A stretch of 64,000 nt of DNA from a virus (IMGVR_UViG_3300044693_000261:1-64000), one strand, 5' to 3'. Shown: positions 407-52,365, counted from the stretch's first letter. A program made the numbers and translations. The notes: generated by a model from the letters alone, not told the origin.

Positions 407-1707
407 GCGGGAGTTTGCGCCGGCATGGCGATCACGGCCCTGTCGGTCACCGACAGCACCTCCAGCGGCGTGCCAGCGGCGAGCGTCATCGTGCCCGAGG
501 TGACACCCACCGTCGTACCGGCGGTCGCCACCACGATCAGCGTCGTCGCGACGGTGCCGACCGGCGCGGCCAGCCCGAGAGTGATCGCGCCCGGCAGCGC
601 CAGCAGCTGACCGGGAACGGCGTCGATCGGCTCGGACAGCGTCCGATAGCCGGCCACGTCAGTGCCCAGGTCGACCGCGCCGGCCAGGCTCGGCACACCA
701 GGCAGGCTCTCGGTGGGCATGGCGTGCGCGAGCGCGCCGGGCCGGTCCGCGCCGGCGGCCAGCGCTTTCGCGGCGGGCGCGGTGCCGTTGCGGCCGCATT
801 CGATGGCGTGGCTGACGGTCTCGTCGGGCTCGCTGAACAGCAGGCCACAACGGCAGCCGTAGACCTCCTCGGCTCCGGCGGGCAGCACCGACGGGTCAGC
901 GGGGTGCAGCAGGCGCACGCCGCCGACCTCGAACCGGTCGCCGATGCGGCGCACCTGGCCGTCGGCGACGCGGTGCGTGGCACGCACGCGGGTGTCGTGC
1001 TTGGTGATCCACTGGGTGTGGGTGACGCCGAGCGCGCGGGCGGCCGCCAGTGAGGCGTCGCCGGCGAGCGCGGTGGCCAGGGTGCGGCCGGATAGCAACA
1101 GCCAGTTGCCGCCCTTGCGGTGCTGGGCGCGCACCATGTCCACGACCTGATCGAGGGTGTCGGCCTCGGCGCTGGCCTGGTCGATCGTCTCGCGCATGGC
1201 GTCGGCGTAGTGCTGGGCGGACTGCCGGACGCGCTCGGCGGCGTCCTGGGCGGCGGCCGCCATGGATGCGCCGTCGAACAGCGTGGTGCCGGCAGCGCTG
1301 TGGCCCAGACGGCCGGCGACGTCGTCGACGCTGCCGGTGAGGATGCGGCGCGCGGCGGGCAGTGCGGCCGGTTCGATCTCGTCAACGGCCTTGGCCGGGA
1401 CGATGTAGCCGGCGTCCAGCGGGCGCGGCTCGCCGGCGGTCTGGCCGGACCAGAACTTGGTGCCTCGGCGCGCCTTGGGCCCGTTGAGCCGGGCGAGGAT
1501 CACGGCGATGGTGCGATCCAGCCACGCGGTGATCACTCCGGCCATGATCGCCTCGTTGGCGCGGGCGCGGGCGTCGGACAACGCGGCCAGCTGATCACGC
1601 TGCGGTCCAGGGGCTGGGTTCGGCGCGGCCTCGGTCACCGTGATCGAGTTCGCCTGGACTGCCGGGAGGCTATCGCCAGGCAGCGGCTCGCGCGCCGCGC
1701 TGCTCAC
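403..1707 (-). CDS. phage head morphogenesis / minor head protein (Mu gpF, SPP1 gp7 family)
   Basis: Motif WITKHDTRVRATHRVADGQ...HPADP...YGCRC; directly downstream of the portal. Confidence 0.85.
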   Translation of the reverse strand: MSSAAREPLPGDSLPAVQANSITVTEAAPNPAPGPQRDQLAALSDARARANEAIMAGVITAWLDRTIAVILARLNGPKARRGTKFWSGQTAGEPRPLDAGYIVPAKAVDEIEPAALPAARRILTGSVDDVAGRLGHSAAGTTLFDGASMAAAAQDAAERVRQSAQHYADAMRETIDQASAEADTLDQVVDMVRAQHRKGGNWLLLSGRTLATALAGDASLAAARALGVTHTQWITKHDTRVRATHRVADGQVRRIGDRFEVGGVRLLHPADPSVLPAGAEEVYGCRCGLLFSEPDETVSHAIECGRNGTAPAAKALAAGADRPGALAHAMPTESLPGVPSLAGAVDLGTDVAGYRTLSEPIDAVPGQLLALPGAITLGLAAPVGTVATTLIVVATAGTTVGVTSGTMTLAAGTPLEVLSVTDRAVIAMPAQTPA

Positions 1708-3235
1708 CCTCGCTTCCGGCAGGCAGCTCCTTGACCTCGTCGGCGGGCAGCGTCAGCTCGCTGTAGCCGCTCTGCGCGCGCATGCCGTCCAGCTGTGAGT
1801 CCATGTTGCTGTAGAGGTTGGACAGCTGACTGGACAGCGCGCCGCCGCCATCGCCGCCGGGCGGCAGTGCGGGCGCGGCCGGCGCGCCGCCGATCACGGG
1901 CAGCTTGGACACGGCCTCGGCGTCGCCGGCGTGCTCCGGGTCGCTGTCCTGGACGATGACGCGGCCGCCCGGAATCCACAGGGTGCGCGTGGCCGGGACG
2001 TCCCAGCGATCCAGTCCCATCGTTTCGCGCAGGTCGTCGAGGGTGATGCCGCCCTGGGCGAAGGCGCTGAACGCGCGGTCGATGTCGGTGCGCTTATTGC
2101 GGCCGAGCACCCAGACGTCGCTGATGTCGTGCTGGAGGTAGACGTCGTCGTCGAATCCGCCGGGGGTGAGCTGATCGAGCTGTGCGTCCAGCATGGCCAG
2201 CAGCGGACCCTGGCTGTGCTCCCACCACGAGTAGACCTCGGCGTCGGCGTTGTCGAAGGTGCGGCCGGACGCGTCGCCCATCATCGACTCGGGCACGCCG
2301 AACGCGATCGAGAACTCCTTCTCGGTGCGCGACATCGTGTCGCCCCACTGCGTGTCGCGCGGGGTGCCCGAGGTGTCGACCCAGTTCATCTCGTCGGTCT
2401 CGATCACCGTCGTGCGGCCGGCGTGGTCTGGACCACCCTGGAAGCGCGATTGCAGGCGGATCTCGGTGGATTCGGAGATCGGACCCTTGACGCTGAGGAT
2501 GCCGCCGGGGCGGCCGTCGTTCTGAAGGAACCGCCGGTTGTAGAGGCGGGCGTACTTGTCCAGGTCGGCCGAGAGGCCGGCGGCCTCCATTGGCGACATG
2601 CCCCGGCTGAACATCGTGGGGTGCGGGCTGCGGACCCACACCACACCCGAGGGCTGATCGGACACGTCGGCGTCGGGATCCCACGGCGGCAGGTAGTCGT
2701 AGCCGCCGTCCTGCGCGCCTTTCAAGATCCGGAACGAGCCGATGGGGGTGTTGGACCCGGGCAGGATGTCGACGCGGTCGGCGTCGAGCAGGTTCACCGA
2801 GTAGATGCCGCCCTGGTTGTTGCGCACCGCTTCGATGAACACGCCCCGGCTGGACAGCACGTAGTTGGCGACCAGGCGGTGTCGCCAGATCTTGGCCACC
2901 TCGGTCGGGTTGGCCTTGCGGTTGAGCACCCGCAGCAGGCGACGCTGTTGGGGGTCCAACTCCTCGGGCTTGAGGATCTGGCCGTCGCGGGGATCGCCTT
3001 CGCGCAGGATCATGCGCCGGTTGATCGCGTTGGCGCAGATGACCTCGACGCAGCGGAAGATGTACGGGTTGAACTGGTATCCGTCAGCGACGGCGCGGTC
3101 GACGTTCCAGTCCTTGATATAGGGCTGGCCGGGGGTGGTCCAGGTGCGCGGCTCCGACATGACGCGCCCGGCGAGGCCCTTGGTCTCGACCCCCCGGAAC
3201 ATCCGGCGCAGCGCGGGCAGGAACTCCCGAGGCAC
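1670..3235 (-). CDS. phage portal protein (HK97-like)
   Basis: Motifs RGMSPMEAA, FLQNDGRPGGIL, FSIAFGVPESMMG, TFDNA, ITLDDLRETMGL. Confidence 0.92.
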   Translation of the reverse strand: MPREFLPALRRMFRGVETKGLAGRVMSEPRTWTTPGQPYIKDWNVDRAVADGYQFNPYIFRCVEVICANAINRRMILREGDPRDGQILKPEELDPQQRRLLRVLNRKANPTEVAKIWRHRLVANYVLSSRGVFIEAVRNNQGGIYSVNLLDADRVDILPGSNTPIGSFRILKGAQDGGYDYLPPWDPDADVSDQPSGVVWVRSPHPTMFSRGMSPMEAAGLSADLDKYARLYNRRFLQNDGRPGGILSVKGPISESTEIRLQSRFQGGPDHAGRTTVIETDEMNWVDTSGTPRDTQWGDTMSRTEKEFSIAFGVPESMMGDASGRTFDNADAEVYSWWEHSQGPLLAMLDAQLDQLTPGGFDDDVYLQHDISDVWVLGRNKRTDIDRAFSAFAQGGITLDDLRETMGLDRWDVPATRTLWIPGGRVIVQDSDPEHAGDAEAVSKLPVIGGAPAAPALPPGGDGGGALSSQLSNLYSNMDSQLDGMRAQSGYSELTLPADEVKELPAGSEGEQRGARAAAWR

Positions 3236-3391: not shown

Positions 3392-3577
3392 CTACCGCTC
3401 CGGCTCGCCTTGATCACGATCGTGTCTCATCAGGACAAACCCGATAGCGATCAGTATCGGTCCGTTGACCAGCAGCAACGCCACCCAGCTGTTCAGCATC
3501 GCGGTGCCGACCTCCAGCGCGGCAACGCCCAGTGCGGCGATGATGAGACCGACGATCTCGCGTCCAGCTCCGCTCAT
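3392..3577 (-). CDS. small two-TM membrane protein upstream of the portal
   Basis: MSGAGREIVGLIIAALG... with two hydrophobic stretches; start overlaps the upstream stop. Confidence 0.65.
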   Translation of the reverse strand: MSGAGREIVGLIIAALGVAALEVGTAMLNSWVALLLVNGPILIAIGFVLMRHDRDQGEPER

Positions 3578-5927: not shown

Positions 5928-5983
5928 GGTCACACCCTCCTTTGCCGGAACACCGCAAGCATAGCCAGCGCAATGCCGGCGGT

Positions 5984-7600: not shown

Positions 7601-7904
7601 GACGGGGACAGCGGGAAGCCTTCCCCGTCGGCTGCGACGGGGAAGGCGACGGGGAACGACGGGGAATCAGTCCCGGACGGTGCATCGGGTCAGCACGGTC
7701 TGGCACTCCCCGTCGCGGGTGGCGTGCTCCTTCACGGTTCCCCGCAGGCTGATCACGGTTCCCCGTAGCTCGGGGAAGCAGCGGGAGGCGGTCCACTTCA
7801 CGGTTCCCCGTTCGGTGTCGATCACGAGGAGCGTCCGCACGCCGTAGTCCCCGTCGATCTCCCACTGGACGCGCACCGTCCCCGTGACCTCCAGACGCTC
7901 CCCG
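7601..7904. repeat. cluster of GACGGGGA(A)/TCCCCG repeats with a polarity switch near 7670, including hairpin 7619-7646
   Basis: Plus-strand GACGGGGA at 7601, 7636, 7648, 7658; opposite-orientation TCCCCG cores at 7622, 7707, 7739, 7760, 7805, 7848, 7879, 7899. Confidence 0.75.
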
Positions 7905-8452
7905 ACGGTGCCGAAGTGGGCGTTGACGCGGCCGGCGGCCTCCTCGGCGCGCTGCCGCGCCTGCTCCTCGGCGTCAGCGGCGTGCCGCATGCCCTCGCGG
8001 ATCAGCTTCTCGGCGAACTCGATCTGGCGGGGGCTCATCTCGCCCTTGTGCAGCAGGTCCAGGGCGAGGCTGCCGAGGGTGCCGGAGTAGTCGGGCAGGT
8101 AGGTCAGCTCGGCCAGCAACGGGTGCGCGTCGACCAGGGCGGCGATCTTGCCGGGCAGGGCGGCCAGCTTGGCGGCCTCGCGGCGCTCGCGGCGGGCTTC
8201 GCGCAGCTCGCGCTCGTGGTCGCGCTTGGCGATCTGCTCGTGGGTCATCCACGCGCCGCCGCTCGCGCCGGTGGCGGTGCGGCAGCCCCAACACCAGCTG
8301 TAGTCGAGCAGCGAGGGGTAGTGGGCGGTGCCGTTGCACTTCCAGCAGGGCACCCAGACGTGCTCGACGCCGCCGATCATGCGGGTCTCGCCGGCCTCGT
8401 GGATCTTGACGAACAGCTCTGCCGGGACTCCGTTGATCGTGTGCTGGACCAT
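7667..8452 (-). CDS. hypothetical protein with an N-terminal CxxC zinc finger and a C-terminal OB-fold-like region
   Basis: CWKCNGT...CWGC; C-terminal HFGTVGERLE...KWTAS...GTVKEH..RDGECQTVLTRC; full promoter motif upstream. Confidence 0.7.
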   Translation of the reverse strand: MVQHTINGVPAELFVKIHEAGETRMIGGVEHVWVPCWKCNGTAHYPSLLDYSWCWGCRTATGASGGAWMTHEQIAKRDHERELREARRERREAAKLAALPGKIAALVDAHPLLAELTYLPDYSGTLGSLALDLLHKGEMSPRQIEFAEKLIREGMRHAADAEEQARQRAEEAAGRVNAHFGTVGERLEVTGTVRVQWEIDGDYGVRTLLVIDTERGTVKWTASRCFPELRGTVISLRGTVKEHATRDGECQTVLTRCTVRD

Positions 8453-8577
8453 GGCGCTGACTCCCTCTCGCGTGCGGAACACCACAAGCATAACCAGCGC
8501 CGAGAGCTTGGGTCAACGACTACTTTCCGTCACTGTCTCAGGACACCCCCACCTCGTTCGACCCGCCTCGAACATGA

Positions 8578-8674
8578 GACAGCCGTGAGACAGCCAGAAA
8601 GCCTATTACGCGCGCGCGTACGCGTACACACGCACGCCTGCGCATAGGCTGCCCTGCGCTGTCTCACGGCTGTC
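8578..8674. repeat. 17-bp perfect inverted repeat around a 31-nt alternating purine/pyrimidine tract, directly downstream of traB (candidate clt or origin-like site)
   Basis: GACAGCCGTGAGACAGC 8578-8594 and GCTGTCTCACGGCTGTC 8658-8674; inner AGCCTAT/ATAGGCT; alternating tract 8607-8637. Confidence 0.7.
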
Positions 8675-8709
8675 AGGTGTCTCACGGACGGCCGTGCGGG
8701 CCTGTCACG

Positions 8710-10743
8710 TCACGCGCTGTGCTCGCGCACGCGACCCCGGAACATGTACTGGCCGTCGCCCACGCGCTCGATCTCGCCGGACTCCAGCAGGGCCTCGATC
8801 CGGCGGTGCACCGTCGCCCGCGACAGCGTGCTGGCCTCCACCAGCTGCTTGGGGCTCACCGGCTCCTCGGCCGCCTGCTCCAGTCGAGCGCGGAACGCCT
8901 CCTCGGCCTCCGCCGGCTCCAGCTTCGCCGCCGCCGGCGGTTCGTCGTCGAGCTTGGGCAGCTGGCTCAACGACACGTTGGCGATGGGCGGGAAGTCGTC
9001 GCTGAAGACCTCGGCCGGATCGAAGTCGTCACCCAGCTTGCCCGGACGTCCAGTCATCCGATGATCACTCCTGTCTATCTCGTCGGGGACGACCAGCGTC
9101 CTCCAGTACCCGCCGCCGGGCTTCCCGATGGCGTCGTCATCTTCCCCGTCCGGTTCCCCGTCGCGTTCCCCGTCGGCGACCTGCGGTTCCCCGTCGCGTT
9201 CCCCGTCGGCGTCGAGGTCTTCCCCGTCAAGATCGTCGAGTTCCCCGAGCGGGTCCCGCTCGCGGGTGGCGTACGGCTTCCCCGCGACGCGGAAGGTGTC
9301 GGGGTCGAGCTCGGGCTGTTCCCCGTGGTAGAGCCGGTCCAGCGCGGCGGTGATCTCCTCGTCGAGGTAGGGCACACGCCACTTGGTCGGGACCACGTCG
9401 CCAATTTCGATATATCCGACACCGGGGGTGTCGGCCGAGATAGCAGCCGTGTCGACCTGGTCATAACCGTTCAGAATATTCTTCGACTCGCCGCTCTTGT
9501 TGGTGCGGAAACAGACCCGCACGCCGAGCTGGCCCTTAATCTGCGAGGAACCCAGCGCCTCCAGTGTCGGATACTGCGTGGCGAAGATCAGAATGACGCC
9601 GACCGACCGGGCGCGCCGAGCGATCGACTTGAGCTGATTCAGTGCATTCGTCAGATCGCCGTCGCCGGTCAGCTCGGCGCATTCGTCGATGATGGCGACG
9701 ATCACCGGATGACTGGCCGAGGGCTTCCACACCTTCGACCGCCACAGTCGCCGCGACAGGCCACCGCGCTCGCTGACGATCCGGTAGATCGTCTCCACCA
9801 TCTTGACGGCCTCGGGCTTGTCGACCGCCAGCCAGCCGCCGTCGCCGGCCGAGCGGGCCCACTGACCGAACTCTTGGCCACCCTTGAGGTCGATCAGCCA
9901 CGGCACGGCATCGACGGCCGACAGCACGTTGGCGATGATCAGGTTGAGGAAGCTTGACTTGCCCGCGCCGGTCGCGCCGGCGACCAGCATGTGCAGGCCG
10001 CCCCAGCCCTCCTTCCACATGTTCAGCCACAGCGGCTTGCCGTTGGTCTGCCGGCCGAGAAAGATCGGCTGCTTGATCGAGGTGATCAGCTTGGCCTGGT
10101 CGAACTCGACACCACTGGCGTAGGGCTCGCGCTCCTCGTAGATCAGGTGCGTGATGTGCGCGTCGGGCGTGGCCTCCACTCGCAGCTTGCCGCGCTTGAG
10201 TCGCAGCAGCTTCTCGATCCTGCTCACCGACCGGGTCAGGTCATCGGCGGACGCGCCGTCGATCGTCGCCCGCCAGCCGGCCTCGGTCACCCGGAACGCG
10301 CCCTTGGGCATCTTCGCGCCGATCTCGCCGATGGCCTTGGCCACGCCTGGCCACGCCTCGACGACACGCTCCATCTGGATGCGCTGCTCCAGTCGGCCGT
10401 TGGTCGCGAACAGCACGGTGTAGAGCAGGGTGCCGACGAACCACGTCCAGAACATGCCGGCGTGCCAGGGCGAGATCAGGCTGGCGGTGACCAGCCACGC
10501 GGTGATGCTGGTGGTGACCGCGACGCCGAACGCCCTGCTGGGGCCGTCCTGCACGAAGTGCGTGAGCAGCGCCAGCGCGGCCACCAGCGAGGGCAGCAGC
10601 ACGGCGAGCGTGAGCTGCCAGCCAACCTGCGGCAGGCAGGACACGCCGCCGGCGGCGTAGACCAGCGCCGCCAGCGTCAGCGGATACGTCGCTCGGCGGT
10701 GACGCCGGTAGGCGTCCCAGTAGGTGCCGACGTTTGCGGCCAC
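8710..10743 (-). CDS. traB: TraB-type FtsK/SpoIIIE conjugative DNA translocase
   Basis: N-terminal TM helices, HMLVAGATGAGKS Walker A, LIDLKGG, IIDECAEL Walker B, ARSVGVILIFATQYPT, C-terminal wHTH (LSRATVHRRIEAL..GEIERVGDGQY). Confidence 0.88.
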   Translation of the reverse strand: MAANVGTYWDAYRRHRRATYPLTLAALVYAAGGVSCLPQVGWQLTLAVLLPSLVAALALLTHFVQDGPSRAFGVAVTTSITAWLVTASLISPWHAGMFWTWFVGTLLYTVLFATNGRLEQRIQMERVVEAWPGVAKAIGEIGAKMPKGAFRVTEAGWRATIDGASADDLTRSVSRIEKLLRLKRGKLRVEATPDAHITHLIYEEREPYASGVEFDQAKLITSIKQPIFLGRQTNGKPLWLNMWKEGWGGLHMLVAGATGAGKSSFLNLIIANVLSAVDAVPWLIDLKGGQEFGQWARSAGDGGWLAVDKPEAVKMVETIYRIVSERGGLSRRLWRSKVWKPSASHPVIVAIIDECAELTGDGDLTNALNQLKSIARRARSVGVILIFATQYPTLEALGSSQIKGQLGVRVCFRTNKSGESKNILNGYDQVDTAAISADTPGVGYIEIGDVVPTKWRVPYLDEEITAALDRLYHGEQPELDPDTFRVAGKPYATRERDPLGELDDLDGEDLDADGERDGEPQVADGERDGEPDGEDDDAIGKPGGGYWRTLVVPDEIDRSDHRMTGRPGKLGDDFDPAEVFSDDFPPIANVSLSQLPKLDDEPPAAAKLEPAEAEEAFRARLEQAAEEPVSPKQLVEASTLSRATVHRRIEALLESGEIERVGDGQYMFRGRVREHSA
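9142..9327 (-). repeat. array of GACGGGGAA repeats inside traB (candidate TraB recognition sequences)
   Basis: Exact TTCCCCGTC at 9142, 9154, 9166, 9187, 9199, 9220; variants at 9241, 9278, 9319; partly 12-bp periodic. Confidence 0.75.
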
Positions 10744-10764
10744 GGTGGTGCTCCTGTTCCTTTC

Positions 10765-11580
10765 CTAGGCTGTCTTCTGCTCGAAGAACTTGGCCGCGTT
10801 CCTGGGCATCTGCACGCCCGAGCTGTCCAGGAACGGGGCGTAGAGCACGCGAAAGACGGTGCGCGCCGAGCGGATCGGCTCGATCATCTCGGCGGCCTGC
10901 TCACCGGCGCGGATGACGCCGTCGACGACCCGCTTGTCCAGGTCCAGCCGCTCGGCCAGGTCGGCGATCTCCTGCGACAGCCGCAGCGCGCCCAGGACCA
11001 TGTCGTTGAACAGCTGCTCAAGCTCGTGGGCGGTCTCGGGGCTGGCCTCGGCCAGGTAGGCGAATCGCTCGGCCGCCGTGTTGCTGCGCACGATGCGTGC
11101 TCCTCCCATTGCGGTAGCCGCCCCTGGTGGGCTGGCCGTTGTCGTTGTCGTGGGCCGGGGTCCGGTGCCGTGTGTGCGCCGCACCCTCTTGACGCGCTCC
11201 TTGGTCTTGCGCACCTCGTTGTCGAGCGCGCCGGCGTTCTCCTTCTTGCGGACCTTGGCCGGGTCGCACTTGTGCTGGGCTCGGTCGCGCAGATCGTTCG
11301 AGCCGACGCCACAGGCCAGGCAGCGCCAGCCACCGCGCACCAGCTGTTTGATCGTGGGCTGGCGGCTGGCCTTGTTCTCGCCGCCCAGGTCAACCCACTT
11401 GCGCCGCTTGTTGGTCCGCTCGGCCTGCCTGAGCAGCCAGGCGTCGCGGCGCGCTTTGTCGAAGGGAGTGGCCAGAGCCGAGCCGAGCTTCGCGCCGCCC
11501 CAGCCGATGCCCCTGGCGGCAGCCTTCGCGGCGGCGGCGCTGACCTTGCGTCCCACCCTCTTGGCGTTGGTCTTAGCCAT
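10765..11580 (-). CDS. hypothetical protein in the transfer operon (TraA-like position)
   Basis: Lies between the DUF2637 gene and traB; basic N-terminus, CLAC motif, helical C-terminus. Confidence 0.65.
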   Translation of the reverse strand: MAKTNAKRVGRKVSAAAAKAAARGIGWGGAKLGSALATPFDKARRDAWLLRQAERTNKRRKWVDLGGENKASRQPTIKQLVRGGWRCLACGVGSNDLRDRAQHKCDPAKVRKKENAGALDNEVRKTKERVKRVRRTHGTGPRPTTTTTASPPGAATAMGGARIVRSNTAAERFAYLAEASPETAHELEQLFNDMVLGALRLSQEIADLAERLDLDKRVVDGVIRAGEQAAEMIEPIRSARTVFRVLYAPFLDSSGVQMPRNAAKFFEQKTA

Positions 11581-12379
11581 CGCTCTCACCGGTCAACCGC
11601 TTCTCCTCCCAGGCGGGGATCAGGTTCTTGGCATAGCCGTTGGTGCCCGCCTCGCGGTCGACGGAGGCGAACGACACGAGACCGGGGCCGCGCCCGAACC
11701 GCACGTCAGGGTTCTCGGCGACCATCCGGTCGTAGATGCGCTTGATCCGTGCGCTGACGGACTCGCCAATCTCGGTGACGGTGCCGCCGTCGGTGCCCGT
11801 GGCCTCCAGTTCGGCCGGCTGCTCGGCGCGCTGCGTCTGCTGCTGCGGCCGGGCGGCGCGGGCGGCGACCTTGGCGGCGGCCGCGTCGTCGCGGTCGGCG
11901 CGGGCTCGCATGTCGGCGCGGATCATCGCCGCGAGGTGGACCATGAGGCCGAGCACGAGCGGGGCCATGGACGCGAACCCGATGACGACGACGGTCCACC
12001 ACACGGGATCGCCGGCCTTGGTGCCGACCCGCCAGTGCTCGATCGCGTTGCCAATCACCGTGGCCACCAGGCAGAAGATCGCAACGGCGGCGGCGTAGGC
12101 CCGTGTCGTGCTCGACAGTCGGGGGTGCAGCCACGCGCGGGTGGCCGCGAGCACCGCGAAGTCGTAGCCGAGGGGGAACAGGTAGGAGACGCCCTCGGCC
12201 AGGCCGATGTCGTGTCCGAGGTTGCGCAGGGTGTCATAGGACAGGATCGCGGTGGCGATCGCGACCACGCCCATGCTCGCGGTGCGCACGGGGTCGACCT
12301 CGGGCGCGGCGTTGGCGAGCGTGAACCAGCCCCATGCCCGCTGATACCAGCGCGGCGATGATCCGAGCAGGTCGGACAC
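11573..12379 (-). CDS. DUF2637 / Spd-like plasmid spreading membrane protein
   Basis: LSYDTLRNLG..IG....YLFPLGYD, ATVIGNAIEH, four TM segments; AAGGAGG RBS. Confidence 0.78.
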   Translation of the reverse strand: MSDLLGSSPRWYQRAWGWFTLANAAPEVDPVRTASMGVVAIATAILSYDTLRNLGHDIGLAEGVSYLFPLGYDFAVLAATRAWLHPRLSSTTRAYAAAVAIFCLVATVIGNAIEHWRVGTKAGDPVWWTVVVIGFASMAPLVLGLMVHLAAMIRADMRARADRDDAAAAKVAARAARPQQQTQRAEQPAELEATGTDGGTVTEIGESVSARIKRIYDRMVAENPDVRFGRGPGLVSFASVDREAGTNGYAKNLIPAWEEKRLTGESDG

Positions 12380-12543
12380 CGGAACTACCTCCTTCGTGTG
12401 AGACACGGCTCGCACTCCGCGACTCCGATCGGCGGTGCAATTTGCAGACTGAGACACCTACTCTGTGTGGTGTCAGGTGCTATAGTACACCAGTGTCTCA
12501 GGACACGTGTGGCACATCCGCGACAGAGAGCGAGGTACGACGA
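12380..12543. promoter_or_regulatory. divergent kor/tra control region with TGAGACAC half-sites and the GTGTCTCAGGACAC palindrome
   Basis: TGAGACAC at about 12399 and 12450; GTGTC-TCAG-GACAC at 12493-12506; TATAGT -10-like hexamer at 12481. Confidence 0.6.
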
Positions 12544-13302
12544 GTGACGATCGAGCGGAGCGACCCGCCTTACATGCAACTCGCCCTCACACTTCGGGCG
12601 AAGATCCTCAACGGCGACATTCCGGACGGATCGAAGTTGCCCTCAATCCGCGACGCCGCTCGGCAGTACGAGGTCAGCGTGGCCACCGCCACCAAGGGGT
12701 ATGCCCGTCTGCATCAGTGGGGGCTGACGCAGGCGCGGCACGGAGAGGGCACCTTTGTCACCCTGGACGACGTCCGCCACAGCGGGCGGGACCGCATGAC
12801 CACGACCCTGATGACTGGACGATTCTTCGGCAAGACCGGCCAGTACGCCAAGATCATCTCGGCCGAGGTGGTCACCGCCCCCGACAACGTCGCCGACGAC
12901 CTTGGGCTGGCGCGCGGCGCGCGGGTCATCCGCCGTCAGCGCGTCACCCACCGGGCCGACGGCACACCGCTGTCGACCTCCATCAGCTACCACGACGCCG
13001 AGCTGGCCGAGGTCGCGCCCAAACTGCTGGAAAAGGAACGGATCGTCGAAGGACCGGCGTACGTGACCCAGGTGACCGGGCGCGAGCCGAATGAGGGCTA
13101 CGACCGGATCCGTGCCCGTGAGGCCACCGCCGAGGAGGCCGAGCTGCTGGGTATCGAGGTCGGCAAGCCCGTGCTCCAGATGGTCACCCAGGTCTTGTCG
13201 ACCGACGGGGAGTCGGTCGAGTACGGGGTGAGCGTGTCCCGCTCGGACCGGGAGATCACCTACCGCTACCCGCTGGGCGACCTGCGCCGGGAGAGCAGCT
13301 AG
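12544..13302 (+). CDS. GntR/HutC-family (UTRA domain) repressor, KorA/TraR-like
   Basis: PPYMQLA..LR..I..G....GSKLPS...VSVAT..K....L...G....HGEGTFV plus UTRA domain; divergent from spd-tra. Confidence 0.9.
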   Translation: MTIERSDPPYMQLALTLRAKILNGDIPDGSKLPSIRDAARQYEVSVATATKGYARLHQWGLTQARHGEGTFVTLDDVRHSGRDRMTTTLMTGRFFGKTGQYAKIISAEVVTAPDNVADDLGLARGARVIRRQRVTHRADGTPLSTSISYHDAELAEVAPKLLEKERIVEGPAYVTQVTGREPNEGYDRIRAREATAEEAELLGIEVGKPVLQMVTQVLSTDGESVEYGVSVSRSDREITYRYPLGDLRRESS

Positions 13303-13358: not shown

Positions 13359-13646
13359 TTAACGGCGGTTCGCCGCGATGAACCGGGCGCAGCGCAGCGT
13401 GTGCGCCGCCGCCCGCGTGATGCCAGTCGCGGTGCCGGCCGTTACGAACTCCTCGCCGCACGAACAGCACCACACGCCATCCAGGGCGAGATCGGCGTCC
13501 GTACGGGAGCGCCGGCGAGCCCGTACGGAGATGAGCACCGAACCCAGCCAGCAGGCGGTCCGATACACCACCCATCCGAAAGCCGATGTCGCGCAGAGGC
13601 CGCCGACGATCATGGCGATCAGGCCGAGCAGCTCACCCACCCACAC
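13359..13646 (-). CDS. hypothetical membrane protein
   Basis: Hydrophobic N-terminus and CCSC motif. Confidence 0.5.
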   Translation of the reverse strand: MWVGELLGLIAMIVGGLCATSAFGWVVYRTACWLGSVLISVRARRRSRTDADLALDGVWCCSCGEEFVTAGTATGITRAAAHTLRCARFIAANRR

Positions 13647-14187
13647 GGCATCCCTCGCACTTCTCCCAGTGCTCGCGCGCGACCTCCACAGTCCGCGTGA
13701 CCAGCTCGATCGGATTTCGGGTCTGACACTTCACCGGCCACTGTGCACCCGATCGGCACGTCACGACAGCCCCCAGCCAGAGGCCGAACACCGGCGTGGC
13801 GGATGCCACCGACAGGGTGCTGGTCATCGGCGCGAACATGTGGCTGACCGACAGCAGCGCGCGAGCCTGGTTGCATCGCTGGCCGCGCCGGTGGTCGACC
13901 CACACCTGGCCGAAGGCGAAGGCCACGCCACCCAGGCCGACCAGGCCGATGATGCTGGCGGCGACGTAGAGCAGCGCCGCCGGCATCGTCTCGGAAACCG
14001 GAATCGACGGCAGAACGACGGCGGCGACGGCGGCGGCCGCGACGAGGCCGCACCATGGTGCCCAGTGGCGTGGGTGGCAGTCGGCGATCACCGCGAGTTG
14101 CGCGTTGCGCCACTCGTCAACGAGGGCATCGTGCAGCGGCTTGCGCGTGAGTTCGACAGTGGTGGTCACCCGGCGCGTCATCGCCAC
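13633..14187 (-). CDS. hypothetical membrane protein
   Basis: Two TM segments; overlaps its neighbours. Confidence 0.55.
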   Translation of the reverse strand: MAMTRRVTTTVELTRKPLHDALVDEWRNAQLAVIADCHPRHWAPWCGLVAAAAVAAVVLPSIPVSETMPAALLYVAASIIGLVGLGGVAFAFGQVWVDHRRGQRCNQARALLSVSHMFAPMTSTLSVASATPVFGLWLGAVVTCRSGAQWPVKCQTRNPIELVTRTVEVAREHWEKCEGCRVGG

Positions 14188-14750
14188 GCCTCCTCGGGGA
14201 TGCGCTCGGGCACGTCACCGATGTCGGAGCGGTTGGCCAGCAGCCACGCCCGCACGTCGGACCAGGACCGCAGCAGGTGCGGCAGCGGTCCGGCGGACTC
14301 CAGCAGCGCGGCCGGCTCGGGGAAACCGTCCAGCTGGCTCCAGCGCTGCATGGTGGTGACGGCGCGACCGGCCGCCCGCGCCAGCGTGCGCAGCGACACC
14401 AGCTGCTGCTCGCGCGCGGCCTCGGCGGTGACGGTGGGCAGGTGCCCCCACTTCTCGGTGAACGTGCGCGACCGCTCGGCGATGTTGGCGAAGTACTCGT
14501 CGAGCTGGCTCTTGTCCCAGCGAGGCTCGTTGCCCCAGGTGTAGCGGGGCCGGACGAGGGGCCGCAGCGCCGCCTTGGCGCGCGGGTGCTCGACGCGGTT
14601 GATCGCGTAGAGCAGCGTCAGCTGTCGCAGGCCGGTGCGGTCGCAGACCTGGCCGATGGTCAGGTGCTTGGCCGCCTCCTCCTCGCTGTGCAGCTCGGTC
14701 GCGTGCCTGCGCCACTCGGCGGTGCGCGCGCTGGTGTCGCTCGCGGACAT
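14178..14750 (-). CDS. putative DNA-binding protein with two AlpA/MerR-like wHTH units
   Basis: LTIGQVCDRTGL...PRWDKSQLDEY and LVSLRTLARAAGRAVTTMQRW...FPEP...WSDVRAWL. Confidence 0.65.
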   Translation of the reverse strand: MSASDTSARTAEWRRHATELHSEEEAAKHLTIGQVCDRTGLRQLTLLYAINRVEHPRAKAALRPLVRPRYTWGNEPRWDKSQLDEYFANIAERSRTFTEKWGHLPTVTAEAAREQQLVSLRTLARAAGRAVTTMQRWSQLDGFPEPAALLESAGPLPHLLRSWSDVRAWLLANRSDIGDVPERIPEEAWR

Positions 14751-16783: not shown

Positions 16784-18394
16784 TCAGGCGATGATGCGCG
16801 ACTCGCCGCCGCCCTTGATCGACAGCTCGGGCATGAGCTGCACGCTCGCCCACACTCCGGCGTCCAGCGGGTCCGGCGACTCCTCCGCGCCCGGAACCCA
16901 CCCGGTCCAACAGTCCTCGTACTCGGGGAACGCGCCCACGCAGTGCACGCGGCCCTGCTCCCACACGCCGGCGACCGGCTCGGCGCGGGTGAGCTTGCCG
17001 CGCGCCGCCCACACGCCGATGATGCGCGGCACCCGCAGGCCCTCGGCCCTGGCGACCATCCGCACCATCGTGGTGACCAGCTCGCCGCCGTTGTTGGTCT
17101 CGGCGGCGATGGCGTCCGCGCCCCACTCCTCGGCGACCTCCAGCGCGCGCCGCGCCCAATGCTCCGGTGTGCCGCGCACGGTGGCGTCCTCCAGCACGTA
17201 GAGGTGGTCGCCGCGCACGATGCCCGGCATGCCCTTGGGCGCAGGCCCGATGCCGACCACGACGATGCCGCAGCGGTCGCTGGTCTTCTTCGAGGTGACG
17301 GCCGGGTCGACGCCGACGACGATGCGCCGCAGCACCGGCACCACGTCGGCGACGCGGATGCGGGTGGCCTCGACCAGCGCCGAGGACACCAGCGCGCCGT
17401 CGACGTCGTCCAGCAGCTCGCCGTCAAGTTCCTGGCGGCCGGTCTTGGTGCCCTTGTACCGCTTGTAGATGGCCTCCACGAACCGGGCCGACAGGTTCGC
17501 GAGGTTGTCAGCGGTGCGCCCCCGGGTGACGACGACATCCGGGTCGCCGTCCTCGGCGCGGCGCAGCAGCTCCTTCAGGACCGGATTGCCGCGCCTGGGT
17601 GTGGTGGTAATGATGAACCGGGGCTGGCGGCCCTTGCGGACCGCCGGCAGCAGCGACTCGTCCCAGAGTTCCTGGATGTTCGGGTAGCTGGCCAGCTCAT
17701 CCAGCCACGCGGCGCGGAAGTTGTAGCCGCGCAGCCGGTCCGGGGTGTCGGCCGAGGCCAGCACGATGCGGCTGCCGCCCCGTACGTAGATGACGTAGTC
17801 GCTCTTGTTGTAGTTGAGCAGGTCGTCACCCAGGGCCGCGAGCAGGCCCGACTCCGGTTCCTCAACGCAGATTTTCCTTGCGTCGCCGAAGGTGGGCGCG
17901 ACCAGCGCGTAGTCGCCCGGCTCATTCACCGCCCATTCGGCCAAGACGTTCGCGCCGGTCCAGGTCTTGCCGAAGCCTCGGCCGGCGAGGATGAGCCAGA
18001 ACATCCACGTGACGCCCGCCGGCGGCAGCTGTGCCGCGCGGGCGCGGCGTCGCCAGGCGCGCGGCAGCGGCGGCTCCAGCTCGCGCAGCGCGCACAGCAC
18101 CGGATCGTCCGGCGCGATGTAGCCGGGGGTGCCGGCCAAGCCGAGCGCCGACCAGTCGACGCCGTCCAGGGTCTTGCCGGGCGTGGCCCCCAGGATCGCC
18201 TCGACCAGGTCGTCGAACGGGTCGACGGCGCGCAGGCTCGCGGCCAGGTCGGCGACGACGGCCGGATCAGCGCCCGCGTTCGCGTACGCGCCGACGCCGG
18301 CGGTCGCGGCGGACAGGCGCGCGGCGTCCTCGCCGACCTGGCGTAGGAAGGCGGCCCGCTCGGCGGCGTCGACGGGGTCGAGGTCGTCTGGCAC
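16784..18394 (-). CDS. terL: terminase large subunit
   Basis: AGRGFGKT Walker A, LRGYNFRAAWLDE Walker B, ITTTP, GRQELDGE, VGVDPA, ETNNGG, SPDPLDA. Confidence 0.95.
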   Translation of the reverse strand: MPDDLDPVDAAERAAFLRQVGEDAARLSAATAGVGAYANAGADPAVVADLAASLRAVDPFDDLVEAILGATPGKTLDGVDWSALGLAGTPGYIAPDDPVLCALRELEPPLPRAWRRRARAAQLPPAGVTWMFWLILAGRGFGKTWTGANVLAEWAVNEPGDYALVAPTFGDARKICVEEPESGLLAALGDDLLNYNKSDYVIYVRGGSRIVLASADTPDRLRGYNFRAAWLDELASYPNIQELWDESLLPAVRKGRQPRFIITTTPRRGNPVLKELLRRAEDGDPDVVVTRGRTADNLANLSARFVEAIYKRYKGTKTGRQELDGELLDDVDGALVSSALVEATRIRVADVVPVLRRIVVGVDPAVTSKKTSDRCGIVVVGIGPAPKGMPGIVRGDHLYVLEDATVRGTPEHWARRALEVAEEWGADAIAAETNNGGELVTTMVRMVARAEGLRVPRIIGVWAARGKLTRAEPVAGVWEQGRVHCVGAFPEYEDCWTGWVPGAEESPDPLDAGVWASVQLMPELSIKGGGESRIIA

Positions 18395-29861: not shown

Positions 29862-30050
29862 GCCGTGAGCCTTCCTGTGCGTGACGCGTCGCCGGCCAGT
29901 ATCGGCCCATCGGCACAGGTGGCGGGCGCGACAGGCCGATCACCGGCGGCGGACATGCAACGGCCCCGATACCTGCGCCGAGGTGTCGGGGCCGTTGGTC
30001 CTGCTCGCGATCATGCAACGCACCGCGTCAAGGTGCGTGTCTCACGGTAG

Positions 30051-30215: not shown

Positions 30216-30241
30216 CTGGTGATCTCGTCAGCATGAGATCG

Positions 30242-30332
30242 TGGCCACGGTGGGACTCGAACCACACACCTCCGGGTCCAACGGCCGAACCGCTGATCAA
30301 ACCCGATGCGCTGCCATTTACGCTACGCGGCC
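30242..30332 (-). ncRNA. tRNA-like RNA 5 (91 nt) with an expanded anticodon arm
   Basis: GGCCGCG/CGTGGCC acceptor, TA-GCGT..GCGC D arm, GGTTCGAGTCC T arm with a bulged stem, 25-nt anticodon loop containing an extra hairpin. Confidence 0.75.
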
Positions 30333-30344
30333 GTTCCGGTAATG

Positions 30345-30503
30345 CTACTTGGAACGCAAGCCGCCCGTGTTCCACTTCCCGTGGAACTCCTTCGATCGGT
30401 CGGCGATCTCCCGAGCCTTCGGGTTGCCGGTGATCTTGCCGACCTTCTCGGCCAGCTCGGCCGCGTCAGTGGTCAGCTCCTGCTTCGACCCCTGCTGTGT
30501 CAC
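30345..30503 (-). CDS. 52-aa protein embedded in the RNA operon
   Basis: GGAGGGAGG RBS, GTG start, MTQQGSKQELTTDAAELAEKVGKITGNPKAREIADRSKEFHGKWNTGGLRSK. Confidence 0.65.
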   Translation of the reverse strand: MTQQGSKQELTTDAAELAEKVGKITGNPKAREIADRSKEFHGKWNTGGLRSK

Positions 30504-30719
30504 GTGCCCTCCCTCCAGAACAGGCCGTGACCGGCGGAAGCGACACCGGAGAATAGAAGGCCATTCGCGCCCAGCCAGCCCGGCGCGCTCCCCGGTGTTC
30601 TCCTGCGGCTGTCCACGCGCCGCCGGTCACGGTGTTGGCGCGGGGGCAGTCGGACCTTTGCCCGCGCCGGGGACAGCCTCTGTTCGCCCGGTAGTGCTCG
30701 GGCCTAGTCCGACGGCGTC

Positions 30720-30811
30720 GTGCGCTGGCCGGAGTCGAACCGGCGACCTCGGATCCCGCCCGCTCACTGCTCCGGGCATCGTCCACGCTCTGTCCACTGA
30801 GCTACAGCGCG
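30720..30811 (-). ncRNA. tRNA-like RNA 4 (92 nt) with an expanded anticodon arm and a C1-A72 mismatch
   Basis: GCGCTG/CAGCGC acceptor, TAGCTCAGTGGACAGAGC D arm, AGGTC variable loop, GCCGG-TTCGACT-CCGGC T arm. Confidence 0.78.
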
Positions 30812-31405
30812 CCGGTCGGGACGGTCAAGGCCAACCGGGTCGTGCTCGGGCCCTGGCTTGCCGCAGCGTCCTGCGATCCCGTCGCCCGTCGTGCACCGAT
30901 GCCGCTACCACACGGCGATCGGTCTATCTCACTTCACCGATCGCCGCCACCAGCAGCGATCGGCCTATCTCACCGTTCCGCCCAGTGCATGGCCATGCCT
31001 GCCGCTAACAGGCGTGTCCGGGCGTATTCCGCTCACTTGCGTGTTCCCGTGCTCCACAGCGGACCGCGAATACCCGTAGGTACCTGTCCCTGTTATCAGC
31101 TTTCCATCCCGTGGAGCGCCCGACCTAGGCAGGCCGATCGGTCGGGGTGTTCCTGAACTCAAGCGGAGTGCACTCCGCCCTGCCGTTCGCGCCCTGGTCG
31201 GCGATGAAACCGGCCAGGGCTGGCAACGTCGGCCGCCAAGTCGCCGTCGCCACTCCACATTCTCGACGCCCGGCGTGGATGACCGGGTGGAAACGACTCG
31301 GCCTGCAAGCGAGCCGCCGCCATCGCCCTCGGCTGAAGGCATCCCGCAGGCTGTGGCACCGGTGCGGGCCCGGCGCTCGGGACGAAGGAGAACGTCCCTG
31401 CCACG
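30812..31405 (-). ncRNA. candidate ~590-nt structured RNA between tRNA mimics
   Basis: No credible ORF; long-range pairing CGATCGGCCT/AGGCCGATCG; duplicated GTGAGATAG(A/G)CCGATCGC; several hairpins. Confidence 0.5.
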
Positions 31406-31503
31406 CAGCGCTGCCCGGACTCGAACCGGGGCACGGGGGCTTCCGCCGAACGCGGCGCGGAGTTACCCGGCCGCCACCGCTCTGCCAACTGAGCTACAGC
31501 GCC
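31406..31503 (-). ncRNA. tRNA-like RNA 3 (98 nt) with an expanded anticodon arm
   Basis: GGCGCTG/CAGCGCT acceptor, TAGCTCAGTTGGCAGAGC D arm, CCCGG-TTCGAGT-CCGGG T arm, 32-nt structured loop. Confidence 0.78.
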
Positions 31504-31789
31504 CCCCACTTTCGCGACACCGGCAGGGGATCCGGTTGCCTGCTGCCTGCCGCCGATAAGGAGTCCAATCACCGACAGGCTGCGTCGCTACGGGCCGTCT
31601 GGCTCCAGCGCTGGCGCGCCGGCCGTCCGTCATGCCCTTGTCCGTTCACCATGGTCGTACAGCCGGCGGTCCAGGCAGTGGACCAGACTGCCGCCAGCCA
31701 TCGCATCGGGCCCTAGCACGTTCGGGCCCGCGCTTCGGTCGCACCGAGTTGCCCCGCCAGAGGCTTCTCGTGTGGCGTGCACCGCGTCG

Positions 31790-31889
31790 AACACCAGGCG
31801 GGAGTCGAACCCGCGACCTCCCATGCAACCCGCCGGCCAATTGGCGGGTCCGGCCGTAGGGCGCTCGTAACCGGCTGAGCTACTGGTGT
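31790..31889 (-). ncRNA. tRNA-like RNA 2 (100 nt) with an expanded anticodon arm
   Basis: ACACCAG/CTGGTGT acceptor, TAGCTCAGCCGGTTACGAGC D arm, AGGTC, GCGGG-TTCGACT-CCCGC T arm, extra 8-bp helix GACCCGCC/GGCGGGTT. Confidence 0.78.
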
Positions 31890-31984
31890 CCCGCCCCACT
31901 TGCTGCGAACCGGTAGGGGCCACCGGATATTGCACTAGCACCCATCCAGGCTGCTCGGCCACAGGAGAGCGAACCGAGCACCCG

Positions 31985-32064
31985 TCCCCCGCCCAGGACT
32001 CGAACCTGGGTTCTCCCTGCCGTTCGCTGCTCGGCAGGGCGCGGTACCCATCCGCCACGGGGTG
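31985..32064 (-). ncRNA. tRNA-like RNA 1 (~80 nt) with an 8-bp anticodon stem, 9-nt loop and 6-bp T stem
   Basis: CCCCG/CGGGG acceptor, GCGG/CCGC D stem, CCCTGCCG/CGGCAGGG, CCCAGG-TTCGAGT-CCTGGG. Confidence 0.7.
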
Positions 32065-41458: not shown

Positions 41459-41495
41459 GTGTCCTAGGACACCCGGTTATGCTGATGACGTTCCG
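41459..41495 (+). promoter_or_regulatory. promoter with a perfect GTGTCCTAGGACAC palindrome in the -35/-10 spacer
   Basis: ttgtcGTGTCCTAGGACACccggtTATGCTgatgacGTTCCG. Confidence 0.7.
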
Positions 41496-44157: not shown

Positions 44158-44807
44158 CCGACACGATGCAGTCATCCACAACTTATCCACAGCCTGTGCA
44201 TGCCGCCGGCGCGGCCCGCGAGGAACTATCCCTGCGGATCTTCGACCTCGCCGACGCGCTGACCGAGCAGGCCAAGGCGGTGCGCTCGATCGCCGAGCAC
44301 GTCGAGGCCGGCAGGCCGTTGCAGCACCACGACGGCGCGACGTTCACCGCCGCCGAGGCCGTCGCCTGGGTGGCCGAGGCGCTGGAGGCCGTCACGAAGC
44401 GAGCCGACCTGTCCGCGCTCGTGCGCGACGCCGCGACACACGACGTGGCCGTCGCCCGCGCCACTGAGGCGAACTGGCTGATCGGCTCCGTGGAGCGCGA
44501 CTACGTGTCGGCGCTCAACGCGGTGTTGGCCTCGCCGGCCGAGGCCGTCGACGACCGGCAGCGCTGGCGCGGGCAGGCCGAGGCTTACCACGACATCGAC
44601 CGCGCGGTGCGGGCCCGACACAGCTTCCCCGCGCCGATGCTGCGCAACCGGGGATGGCGCGAGCTCAACGGCGTCTACAGCGATGCCGACATCGCCGGAT
44701 TCCGACATGGCCACGACGCGCAGGCCGAGGCCGGGCGCGACACCGCCGCCGGTGTGTTCGCCGCCGGTCCGGACGACCTGACCGACCTGGCGGCCGACAA
44801 TGGCTGA
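44154..44807 (+). CDS. hypothetical protein
   Basis: GTGA overlap. Confidence 0.6.
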   Translation: MTDTMQSSTTYPQPVHAAGAAREELSLRIFDLADALTEQAKAVRSIAEHVEAGRPLQHHDGATFTAAEAVAWVAEALEAVTKRADLSALVRDAATHDVAVARATEANWLIGSVERDYVSALNAVLASPAEAVDDRQRWRGQAEAYHDIDRAVRARHSFPAPMLRNRGWRELNGVYSDADIAGFRHGHDAQAEAGRDTAAGVFAAGPDDLTDLAADNG

Positions 44808-52286: not shown

Positions 52287-52365
52287 ACGGCCCGATCGAA
52301 AGCTTGTGTCCTAGGACGCTGCCGGTTATGCTCGCAGTGTTCCGAGCGTGAGAAGGAGGGCCGAC

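Follow-up and report, generated by a model that had tools for sequence, protein, structure and literature searches.

A 103-kb uncultured phage of high-GC actinobacteria carries, beside its portal gene, a set of genes resembling the conjugation modules of Streptomyces plasmids: a TraB-like DNA translocase, a DUF2637 membrane protein and a divergently transcribed GntR/UTRA regulator (Table 1), as expected from the kor-spd-tra type module proposed in a preliminary description of this DNA. The record (IMGVR_UViG_3300044693_000261) is 103,348 bp long and 91% complete by CheckV; the window, meaning the whole stretch of DNA analyzed around the module, covers its first 64,000 nucleotides. We put it at slightly better than even that the genes form a TraB-type module for DNA translocation, native to and conserved in a clade of ~100-120 kb actinophages, and that this module serves virion-independent transfer of phage DNA. 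Since the module appears old and conserved within the phage group, the phage may have a second way to spread that needs no virus particles, and by analogy with the plasmid systems we infer that its DNA could pass between hyphae of a presumably mycelial host.

Two related phage records of 112-120 kb (G001 and G002), with 33-37 proteins in common with the 103-kb record, also carry a GntR gene, a membrane protein gene and traB next to the portal, in the same layout. In both, the module lies 4-6 kb upstream of the portal, and terL lies ~55 kb from the portal, after a UvrD-like helicase gene. The module is therefore portal-proximal in all three phages, which does not support an accessory block separating terL from the portal, as had been proposed; the terL-module-portal placement is particular to the 103-kb genome and its closest kin.

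The translocase, its regulator and neighboring genes

The 677-aa product of the traB-like gene contains an FtsK_SpoIIIE domain (Pfam, E 6.5e-10) with a Walker A motif, GATGAGKS, near residue 256 and a Walker B motif, IIDE, near residue 350; GxxGxGKS and DE are invariant in both TraB alignments (A1, A3). Hydropathy places hydrophobic segments within residues 20-115, consistent with a membrane anchor, and a low-confidence structure model has four N-terminal helices at residues 16-137. An acidic disordered linker separates the ATPase from a predicted C-terminal winged helix, where weak HTH family matches (Pfam) fall at residues 621-666 and where residues 610-668, predicted as H-H-H-E-E, have the best local confidence of the model. 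This C-terminal domain is colinear in all six aligned TraB sequences. Pfam, NCBIfam, hydropathy and the model together bear out the original call of a TraB-type FtsK with TM helices, an ATPase and a wHTH.

NCBIfam plasmid_TraB (NF041214) was the best family, colinear over residues 38-668 with 110 bits (E 1e-31), compared to 24 bits for the chromosomal FtsK family (NCBIfam), and the score did not reach the 800-bit equivalog cut-off of NF041214. Streptomyces plasmid TraB proteins are 23-27% identical to the phage protein over 50-63% of its length. By these scores the protein ranks as a distant relative of plasmid TraB, not an equivalog.

The regulator gene, which also has PhnF/HutC-like NCBIfam matches, occupies the position of TraR/KorA, divergent from the tra/spd operon with palindromic and repeated operators in between, and the divergent arrangement recurs in G001 and G002. 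Its reading frame in Pfam spans 12334-13302(+), but the most likely start is the GTG at 12544 rather than 12334, since the resulting 252-aa product resembles the 250-aa homologue in G001. The DUF2637 gene, with a Pfam reading frame of 11573-12457(-), most likely starts at 12406. It is the first gene of the tra operon, an SpdB2-like position, and its product runs from a TM domain through a charged helical stretch into a C-terminal domain; analogous TM plus coiled-coil proteins stand at this position in G001 and G002. Spd families besides DUF2637 were not recognized in the module. Family searches including Pfam, PHROG and NCBIfam gave no informative match for the 271-aa accessory protein, and the small membrane protein encoded at 13633-14181, whose membership in the module is uncertain, had no match in Pfam, PHROG or NCBIfam. 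The accessory, DUF2637 and GntR/UTRA genes of the preliminary description all stood as gene calls, with the starts of the latter two corrected.

Table 1. Features of the module, its cis sites and context genes (positions in the window)
Feature	Position	Strand	Basis or remark
Portal, Phage_portal	1670-3235	-	Pfam; context gene
Second GACGGGGA(A) array	7601-7666	+	Four + copies, one - copy; intergenic
261-aa gene, phrog_2319	7667-8452	-	Between both arrays
Phage-type promoter TTGACC-18-TATGCT, then GTTCCG	8475-8516	-	Serves gene 7667-8452
Long palindrome directly 3' of traB stop	8520-8712		Sequence, motif counts, fold
traB-like gene, 677 aa	8710-10743	-	Pfam FtsK_SpoIIIE; NCBIfam plasmid_TraB; phrog_24831 full-length
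Six exact GACGGGGAA copies, sense strand of traB linker	9142-9228	-	Candidate in-gene clt / TraB recognition repeats
Accessory gene, 271 aa, basic N-terminus	10765-11580	-	GC3 frame; between DUF2637 gene and traB
DUF2637 membrane protein, 277 aa	11573-12406	-	Pfam DUF2637 E 4e-8; hydropathy
Divergent promoter/operator region	12407-12543		Palindrome GTGTCTCAGGACAC at 12493-12506
GntR/HutC-type regulator + UTRA, 252 aa	12544-13302	+	Pfam GntR 1e-12, UTRA 6e-22; phrog_10724
Small membrane protein, 182 aa	13633-14181	-	GC3 frame, hydropathy; module membership uncertain
Large terminase (terL), Terminase_6N/6C	16784-18394	-	Pfam; context gene
Perfect palindrome GTGTCCTAGGACAC	41459-41472		Between -35 and -10 of phage early promoter
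GTGTCCTAGGACGC, one mismatch	52306-52319		Between -35 and -10, promoter of gene 52366-52953
GTGTCGTAGGACAC	58642-58655		Directly upstream of -10, promoter before gene 58791-59009

Repeat arrays and operator-like palindromes

The 103-kb record contains 10 copies of the 9-mer GACGGGGAA (1.3 expected), and all fall at 7621-7658 or 9142-9220, restricted to the linker of traB and to sequence 1.5 kb downstream. The six linker copies encode all six linker DGE tripeptides with two rare codons: GGG makes up 10.6% of codons for Gly, and GAA 10.3% of those for Glu. The proteome contains 11 further DGE tripeptides, none of them spelled in this way. A recent 33-nt duplication accounts for part of the linker array, however, and this lessens the weight of the codon argument. 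The second array, directly 3' of gene 7667-8452, has its four + strand copies inverted with respect to those in traB, and the final 240 bp of that gene hold five ACGGGGA cores in traB-sense orientation. Each relative has an array of its own: G001 carries GTGACTGA three times in the corresponding traB linker, four times inverted 1 kb downstream and once more in 111 kb, and G002 carries SCGGGGAM seven times in the linker. The linker motifs differ among the three phages, and the winged-helix sequences likewise differ. Motif counts far above chance confirm that the cis sites are repeat-rich, as initially noted.

A second element, the operator-like palindrome GTGTC-N4-GACAC, has 5 exact occurrences compared to 0.13 expected; copies overlie three phage promoters and also occur in the kor/tra promoter. 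TGAGACA boxes lie at 12450 and 12494 in the divergent region, with another at 12399 just within the DUF2637 gene. Five more of these boxes and one operator-like CTGTCTCAGGACAC occupy the arms of the long palindrome at 8520-8712, whose centre is an alternating purine-pyrimidine tract and whose fold has a dG of -107.5 kcal/mol (z -7.0), which makes it a candidate for a terminator, a protein-binding site of the clt or kor kind, or both. The promoter motif at 8475-8516 has ~22 copies genome-wide, among them copies flanking the module on either side and others within the block. The suggestion that cis signals extend into flanking phage genes was thus borne out in this genome by the palindrome, which is present at three early promoters, but did not carry over to G001 and G002, where there is no palindrome-to-promoter wiring; because operators stay within the module there, their spread to phage promoters is specific to the 103-kb genome.

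As a working model, the regulator would keep traB repressed, as in plasmid kil-kor pairs, and in the 103-kb genome may also occupy the three phage early promoters. Upon de-repression, TraB would act jointly with the DUF2637 protein: as hexamers in the septal or hyphal membrane, it would bind the GACGGGGA(A) arrays via the winged helix and then pump double-stranded phage DNA into adjoining hyphal compartments or contacting hyphae. If this is true, the phage genome spreads without virions, like Streptomyces plasmids and as reported for pZL12. Distinctive here are a clade with no recognized integrase or ParA and the operator copies on three phage promoters.

Origin of the module and alternative roles

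The whole-genome search for an integrase or ParAB proposed in the preliminary description gave no match to tyrosine integrase (PF00589), serine recombinase (PF00239, PF07508), ParA (PF13614, PF01656) or ParB (PF02195) anywhere in the 103,348-bp record, whose 91% completeness limits these absences; integrase and ParA (searched there as PF13614) were also not found in the complete relative G002. No direct repeats of at least 16 nt flank the TraB module, in line with the original observation that neither an integrase nor att repeats surround it. Within the block no xis gene was recognized, and no Rep family was among the Pfam, PHROG and NCBIfam matches of the block genes, several of which had no match at all. 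The 91%-complete record thus has virion genes but not the plasmid partition functions that accompany them in phage-plasmids of the P1/N15/pZL12 type, nor the integrase, excisionase and flanking att repeats that mark an AICE. Since neither integrase nor ParA was found in the record or in the complete relative, the stable plasmid or prophage state needed for classical conjugation is not evident.

The module could be a passenger, either a captured plasmid or AICE remnant kept without benefit to the phage or a selfish kil-kor addiction pair. The closest named relatives of the module come from plasmids (TraB proteins), it has its own promoter and regulator, its codon adaptation is slightly under the genome mean (z -0.5 to -1.6), and TraB is far more diverged between clade members (29% identity) than the portal or TerL (56-59%). 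However, the reading frames, supported by GC3 frame analysis, are intact and full length, three phages at only 29% TraB identity share the architecture and the portal-proximal site, every traB linker retains its own repeat array, operator copies sit at phage promoters, and no int or att, nor any rep among the family matches of block genes, was recognized. We therefore consider a passenger origin improbable. The layout kept in two distant relatives, the TerL and TraB homologues of closer relatives on contigs of matching length, the missing int and att and the flanking phage promoter motif support the view that the module is old, conserved and, as far as sequence can tell, native to the phage clade rather than a passenger AICE, in agreement with the preliminary description. 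A chimeric assembly as the source of the juxtaposition of terL, the tra genes and portal is barely credible: the record was assembled from a metagenome and lacks end repeats, and terL lies elsewhere in G001 and G002, but composition is uniform along the record, and the phage promoter motif occurs either side of the module and within the block. Moreover, closer homologues of TerL (90% identical) and TraB (81-82%), drawn from JGI and Logan assemblies, occur on contigs of identical size (106,538, 103,791 and 18,194 bp), and since the shortest spans just 18,194 bp, terL and traB are near each other there too.

If the module is native, its pump might still act within the infected mycelium rather than between cells, moving or segregating genomes across closing septa or into prespores (a spore carrier state), or causing superinfection exclusion. 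FtsK/SpoIIIE-type pumps with sequence-directed loading work at division and sporulation septa, and the mutually inverted arrays of the 103-kb genome and G001 resemble polar loading signals. Another route to persistence would be useful to a clade without integrase and ParA, and FtsK-like genes without kor/clt features are common in large Streptomyces phages. In contrast, the GntR regulator, DUF2637 protein, winged-helix TraB and short repeats match a plasmid transfer unit and not chromosomal FtsK, and we regard a purely intramycelial role as possible but doubtful. It overlaps with virion-independent transfer, as septal spreading is already part of plasmid Spd/TraB function. A part in a defence or counter-defence system, suggested by PADLOC matches of the FtsK/HerA-like ATPase to mad8, SspH and HerA models, appears very unlikely, as those matches are confined to residues 224-445, the generic core of the ATPase, PADLOC matched no partner from the mad8, SspH or HerA systems, and the best full-length match is TraB.

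Comparison with known transfer systems

In the plasmid pSVH1, clt lies within the 3' end of traB and has the motif GACCCGGA. According to Thoma et al. (2015, PMC4447253), clt regions contain direct 8-bp repeats recognized by the cognate TraB, traB and traR are a kil-kor pair, and the targets of TraR are repeats between traR and spd. The phage module resembles the traR-spd-traB-clt unit in its GntR-type regulator, which is transcribed away from a spd/tra operon across intergenic repeats and an inverted repeat; in a TraB built from membrane anchor, FtsK ATPase and DNA-recognition C-terminus; and in short direct repeats, which are clt in pSVH1 and a candidate here. Unlike pSVH1, the phage has a TraB that is only ~25% identical and under the NCBIfam TraB cut-off, the repeat GACGGGGA(A), no recognized rep and a single recognizable Spd-like protein (DUF2637), and its module is embedded in a 103-kb phage.

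AICEs such as pSAM2, SLP1 and pMEA300 carry a kor (GntR), spd and tra set, whose single translocase moves double-stranded DNA (PMC2440964), and the phage module has a gene set of this type. However, int/xis, rep and att at tRNA genes define AICEs, which measure 9-24 kb, whereas no int, xis, rep or att-like repeat was recognized in the phage block.

Among phages and phage-like elements, the phage-like PhiNon1 of Nonomuraea gerenzanensis (NZ_LT559120.1) has a DUF2637 gene and, a short way downstream on the same strand with a few genes in between, a gene for a 654-aa TraB-like protein (26% identical), although a GntR gene is not annotated beside it. PhiNon1 is 59 kb, integrates at a tRNA-Val gene and also replicates (PMC5431353). 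Wofford and NootNoot, 130-kb Streptomyces phages, and Gilgamesh (gp10) are likewise large phages with an FtsK-type ATPase, in some followed by a membrane protein. In these cultured Streptomyces phages the FtsK matches cover the ATPase core alone (32-42% of the query, 24-27% identity), and Gilgamesh, unlike the 103-kb phage, has a tyrosine integrase; no phage record covering 80% of the TraB-like protein was found.

The plasmid-phage pZL12/phiZL12 was reportedly described by Zhong et al. in 2010 (J Bacteriol 192:3747). Two later sources present it as a ~90-kb Streptomyces element that joins tailed-phage structural genes to a TraB-type transfer locus (PMC3583192, PMC4487206), one of them as a circular plasmid with repA and parAB (PMC4487206). 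The 103-kb phage, in contrast, has no ParA, ParB or integrase matches, and its portal has no pZL12/pSLE1-type match among 32 plasmid matches and therefore belongs to a different lineage. pZL12 nevertheless provides a precedent for a single genome using both virions and conjugation.

A TraB-type gene module in a tailed-phage genome

The 103,348-bp IMG/VR record, whose opening 64 kb make up the window, is that of a tailed phage, with a G+C content of ~70%, no end repeats and a completeness of 91% per CheckV. Genes were called via third-position G+C. The long minus-strand structural arm (63-103 kb) runs on across the record's arbitrary start into the MuF-like and portal genes, and the plus-strand arm encodes SNF2 and UvrD helicases, an HD nucleotidase and a PD-(D/E)XK nuclease. 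Near-identical DNA was not found in phage and plasmid collections. Across both arms, ~22 intergenic sites, 20-45 nt upstream of start codons, carry a promoter-like motif, written GGCTATGCTTG-N3-TGTTCCG in the direction of the genes, with TATGCT as its -10 box and an invariant GTTCCG after it; the copies at 5946, 8475 and 15218 fall within the terL-portal interval. Four tRNA-like genes, one with a four-base anticodon (ARAGORN), lie on the minus strand at 30241-32063, in a ~2-kb stretch without credible ORFs.

The preliminary description had listed a TraB-type FtsK, an accessory gene, a DUF2637 gene and a divergent GntR/UTRA gene, and family matches together with gene calls bore out this set. 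The 677-aa TraB-like protein has hydrophobic helices at its N-terminus, followed by an FtsK/SpoIIIE ATPase, then an acidic linker, and at its C-terminus a winged helix. Its top family was NCBIfam plasmid_TraB, colinear over residues 38-668 (E 1e-31), at a score of 110 bits that is far under the 800-bit equivalog cut-off, compared with only 24 bits for chromosomal FtsK. Identity to Streptomyces plasmid TraB proteins was ~25%, across 50-63% of the protein's length. The subfamily is not rare, as a profile of six TraB-like proteins matched 264 representative clusters at E 1e-30 or better. With TraB alone or an alignment of TraB-like sequences (A1) as query, species genomes gave relatives at 29-33% only, and no related loci were found in viral or metagenome contigs. 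Six sequences gave a poor AlphaFold model of TraB (pLDDT 47.9), from which secondary structure alone was used. Family and Atlas searches found no relatives of known function for the 271-aa accessory protein, the Atlas search returning unnamed clusters only, at scores below 0.8, and tblastn of the DUF2637 protein against phages gave no match.

Coordinates of phage genes, module genes and cis elements
Feature	Position	Strand or orientation	Remarks
MuF-like protein	403-1707
Portal	1670-3235
Second GACGGGGAA array	7601-7666	mostly opposite	four copies; intergenic
GTGTC-N4-GACAC, one mismatch	8533		after traB
traB-like gene	8710-10743	minus	677 aa
GACGGGGAA array, traB linker	9142-9228	sense strand of traB	six copies
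Accessory gene	10765-11580	minus	271 aa; upstream of traB, same operon
DUF2637 membrane protein gene	11573-12406	minus	upstream of traB, same operon
GTGTC-N4-GACAC	12493		kor/tra promoter
GntR/UTRA (HutC-type) regulator gene	start best placed at 12544	plus	divergent from tra operon
HTH gene	14178-14750		with terL, G001 97.9-101.1 kb; G002 21.9-25.2 kb
Large terminase (terL)	16784-18394
GTGTC-N4-GACAC	41459, 52306 (one mismatch), 58642		between -35 and -10 of three phage early promoters
Promoter-like motif, example copies	365, 5946, 8475, 15218, 19924, 21479, 27910, 42315, 52319, 58652

Conservation and placement of the module

TerL alone as query gave no related loci, and an IMG/VR scan with a TerL alignment found two relatives, both with a TraB-like gene. 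These phages, G001 (111,566 bp; TerL identity 56-59%) and G002 (120,179 bp with terminal repeats, rated complete; TerL identity 54-57%), share 33-37 proteins with this record, and reading of the full genomes showed that the structural arm is syntenic. In both, a GntR/UTRA gene is divergent from the tra operon, as in this record, and the operon encodes a 278-296-aa protein with TM segments and a coiled coil, a small protein, a 721-725-aa TraB-like protein and a small TM/zinc-ribbon protein. This layout of GntR, membrane protein and TraB lies near the portal, 4-6 kb upstream of it in each relative. Their TraB is only 29% identical to the present one and is colinear with it to the end, winged helix included. 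Between portal and GntR gene, G002 carries a sigma-70-family factor with regions 2 and 4 (79002-79718) and G001 a DUF5753 protein (44642-45460); the same interval here has neither.

The module could be read as a passenger AICE (actinomycete integrative and conjugative element), and the preliminary description, which favored a native module, had named att repeats and an integrase among the marks of such an insertion. Both were looked for and neither was found: no tyrosine integrase, serine recombinase, ParA or ParB was recognised in the 103,348-bp record, and the flanks of the module hold no direct repeat of 16 nt or more. Neither integrase nor ParA was found in the complete relative G002. Composition is uniform, and the codon adaptation of the module is only mildly below the genome mean. 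Since int and att are absent and the module is conserved in the clade, AICE insertion was rejected; the decisive evidence on this point is comparative.

A further part of the preliminary description, that the module lies in an accessory block dividing terL from the portal gene, is not supported as it stands. In G001 and G002, terL closes the replication arm, beyond a UvrD-like helicase and ~55 kb from the portal, so the module splits no ancestral terL-portal pair. The comparison indicates instead that terL and the neighbouring HTH gene were rearranged, standing after the helicase in the relatives and having moved to adjoin the tra module here. An assembly chimera, which had also been raised, would account for this juxtaposition, but it has little support: misassembly is unlikely because TraB homologues (81-82%; P0002-P0004) and TerL homologues (90%) are recorded on contigs of identical sizes (106,538, 103,791 and 18,194 bp) from JGI and Logan assemblies. 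Co-residence was inferred from these identical sizes, and the 18,194-bp contig would therefore place terL and traB within 18 kb of each other.

The HTH gene adjoins terL in all three phages. Its 190-aa product (33-39% identity) has two HTH-like halves, gives weak PHROG matches to excisionase and DNA-binding families, and might be a small-terminase-like DNA-binding protein.

Repeat arrays and operator-like sites

Three classes of cis signal all occur far above chance. GACGGGGAA is present in 10 copies in 103 kb, against 1.3 expected, and in two places only, the traB linker and an intergenic array; the gene that separates these two places holds five shorter cores of it in its 3' end. The linker copies encode all six linker DGE tripeptides as GAC-GGG-GAA, in which GGG and GAA each account for ~10% of their own codon family, and none of the 11 other DGE tripeptides in the proteome has this spelling. 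As an argument, this codon usage is suggestive and not proof, because a recent duplication of 33 nt makes up part of the linker array. In G001, GTGACTGA occurs three times in the traB linker and in four inverted copies 1 kb downstream, with just one more in 111 kb, and G002 has SCGGGGAM seven times in the same linker. The repeat motif differs among the three phages along with the TraB recognition domain, as has been described for plasmid TraB and the clt locus (PMC4447253).

TGAGACA has 12 copies. Two clusters hold eight of these, three in the divergent promoter region and five on a palindrome of 193 nt (fold -107.5 kcal/mol, z -7) that closely follows the stop codon of traB. The palindrome centre (8606-8640) is a ~30-nt alternating purine-pyrimidine tract, ACGCGCGCGCGTACGCGTACACACGCACGC, prone to Z-DNA or cruciform formation. 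Outside the module, a stray copy of a module box motif, TGTCTCATCAGGACA, lies ~190 nt upstream of the portal start (3421-3437), and GTGTCTCACGG at 30036-30046, in the non-coding stretch preceding the tRNA-like genes, matches the copy at 8677 exactly.

The HutC-operator-like palindrome GTGTC-N4-GACAC has five exact copies against 0.13 expected. One-mismatch copies alone are not significant (10 observed, 7.6 expected), and exact copies and copies at promoters were the only ones used. The earlier claim that the cis signals reach into phage genes held in this genome, where the palindrome sits on three early promoters, but not in G001 and G002, where it was not found on phage early promoters and operators are restricted to the module's own promoter.

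A possible transfer route and its precedents

Sequence establishes which genes are present and in what order, the operator-like site of the divergent promoter, and the repeat arrays together with their conservation. We propose that the GntR protein would repress the tra operon, as in kil-kor pairs, and respond to a ligand via its UTRA domain, while TraB hexamers would load onto GACGGGGA(A) arrays via the winged helix; together with the DUF2637 membrane protein they would then drive double-stranded phage DNA through septa or points of hyphal contact. In this genome the regulator may also gate part of the phage programme, as suggested by the copies of the palindrome over three early promoters. 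As neither integrase nor ParA was found in this record or in G002, the cargo may be replicating phage DNA and not a stable plasmid.

On a further reading, this clade of large actinophages would lack lysogeny and plasmid-maintenance genes of any recognisable kind and possibly be virulent. That such phages use a TraB pump, their own repeats and a ligand-sensing GntR switch to push replicating genomes through septa or hyphal contacts, a virion-independent movement like that of plant viral movement proteins, with the repressor here coupling spread to three early promoters, is a proposal we consider rather unlikely as a whole. A serious rival of the transfer route proposed above, with which it overlaps in part, is that the pump moves genomes across sporulation or vegetative septa. 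Identity of the TraB-like ATPase as a defence system has little support and was rejected, as PADLOC matches were to a generic ATPase only.

If the module works as proposed, phages of filamentous actinomycetes would have a second route of spread that needs neither particles nor receptors, which would alter the picture of how plaques grow, of how development contains phages and of the gene flow that phages drive in soil. Three related phages, each with its own pairing of TraB winged helix and repeat motif, make a natural test bed for cargo recognition by these pumps.

The general idea of combining virions with conjugation is not new. The Streptomyces plasmid-phage pZL12/phiZL12, a precedent, is reported (Zhong et al. 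2010 and papers citing it) to combine virion genes with a TraB-type transfer locus. PhiNon1 of Nonomuraea has a DUF2637 gene and a TraB-like gene. The FtsK-like genes of cultured large Streptomyces phages match this TraB in the ATPase core only. SpdB2 homologues have been noted on actinophages, where they might aid the spread of phage DNA (Thoma et al., PMC4447253). Seven Streptomyces plasmids of 125-133 kb (NZ_CP122459.1, CP109288.1, NZ_CP107934.1, CP108533.1, NZ_CP108441.1, NZ_CP070374.1 and NZ_CP107821.1) carry a portal 34-36% identical to that of this phage and resemble a family of phage-plasmids or of prophages kept outside the chromosome; in NZ_CP122459.1 an 18.9-kb gene directly follows the portal, and this plasmid also has Mur ligase genes and an FtsK-like gene (30% identity over the ATPase core). 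Beside these systems, three points are new: the clade has neither integrase nor ParA, repeat arrays written into the gene co-vary with TraB, and operator-like copies lie on phage promoters.
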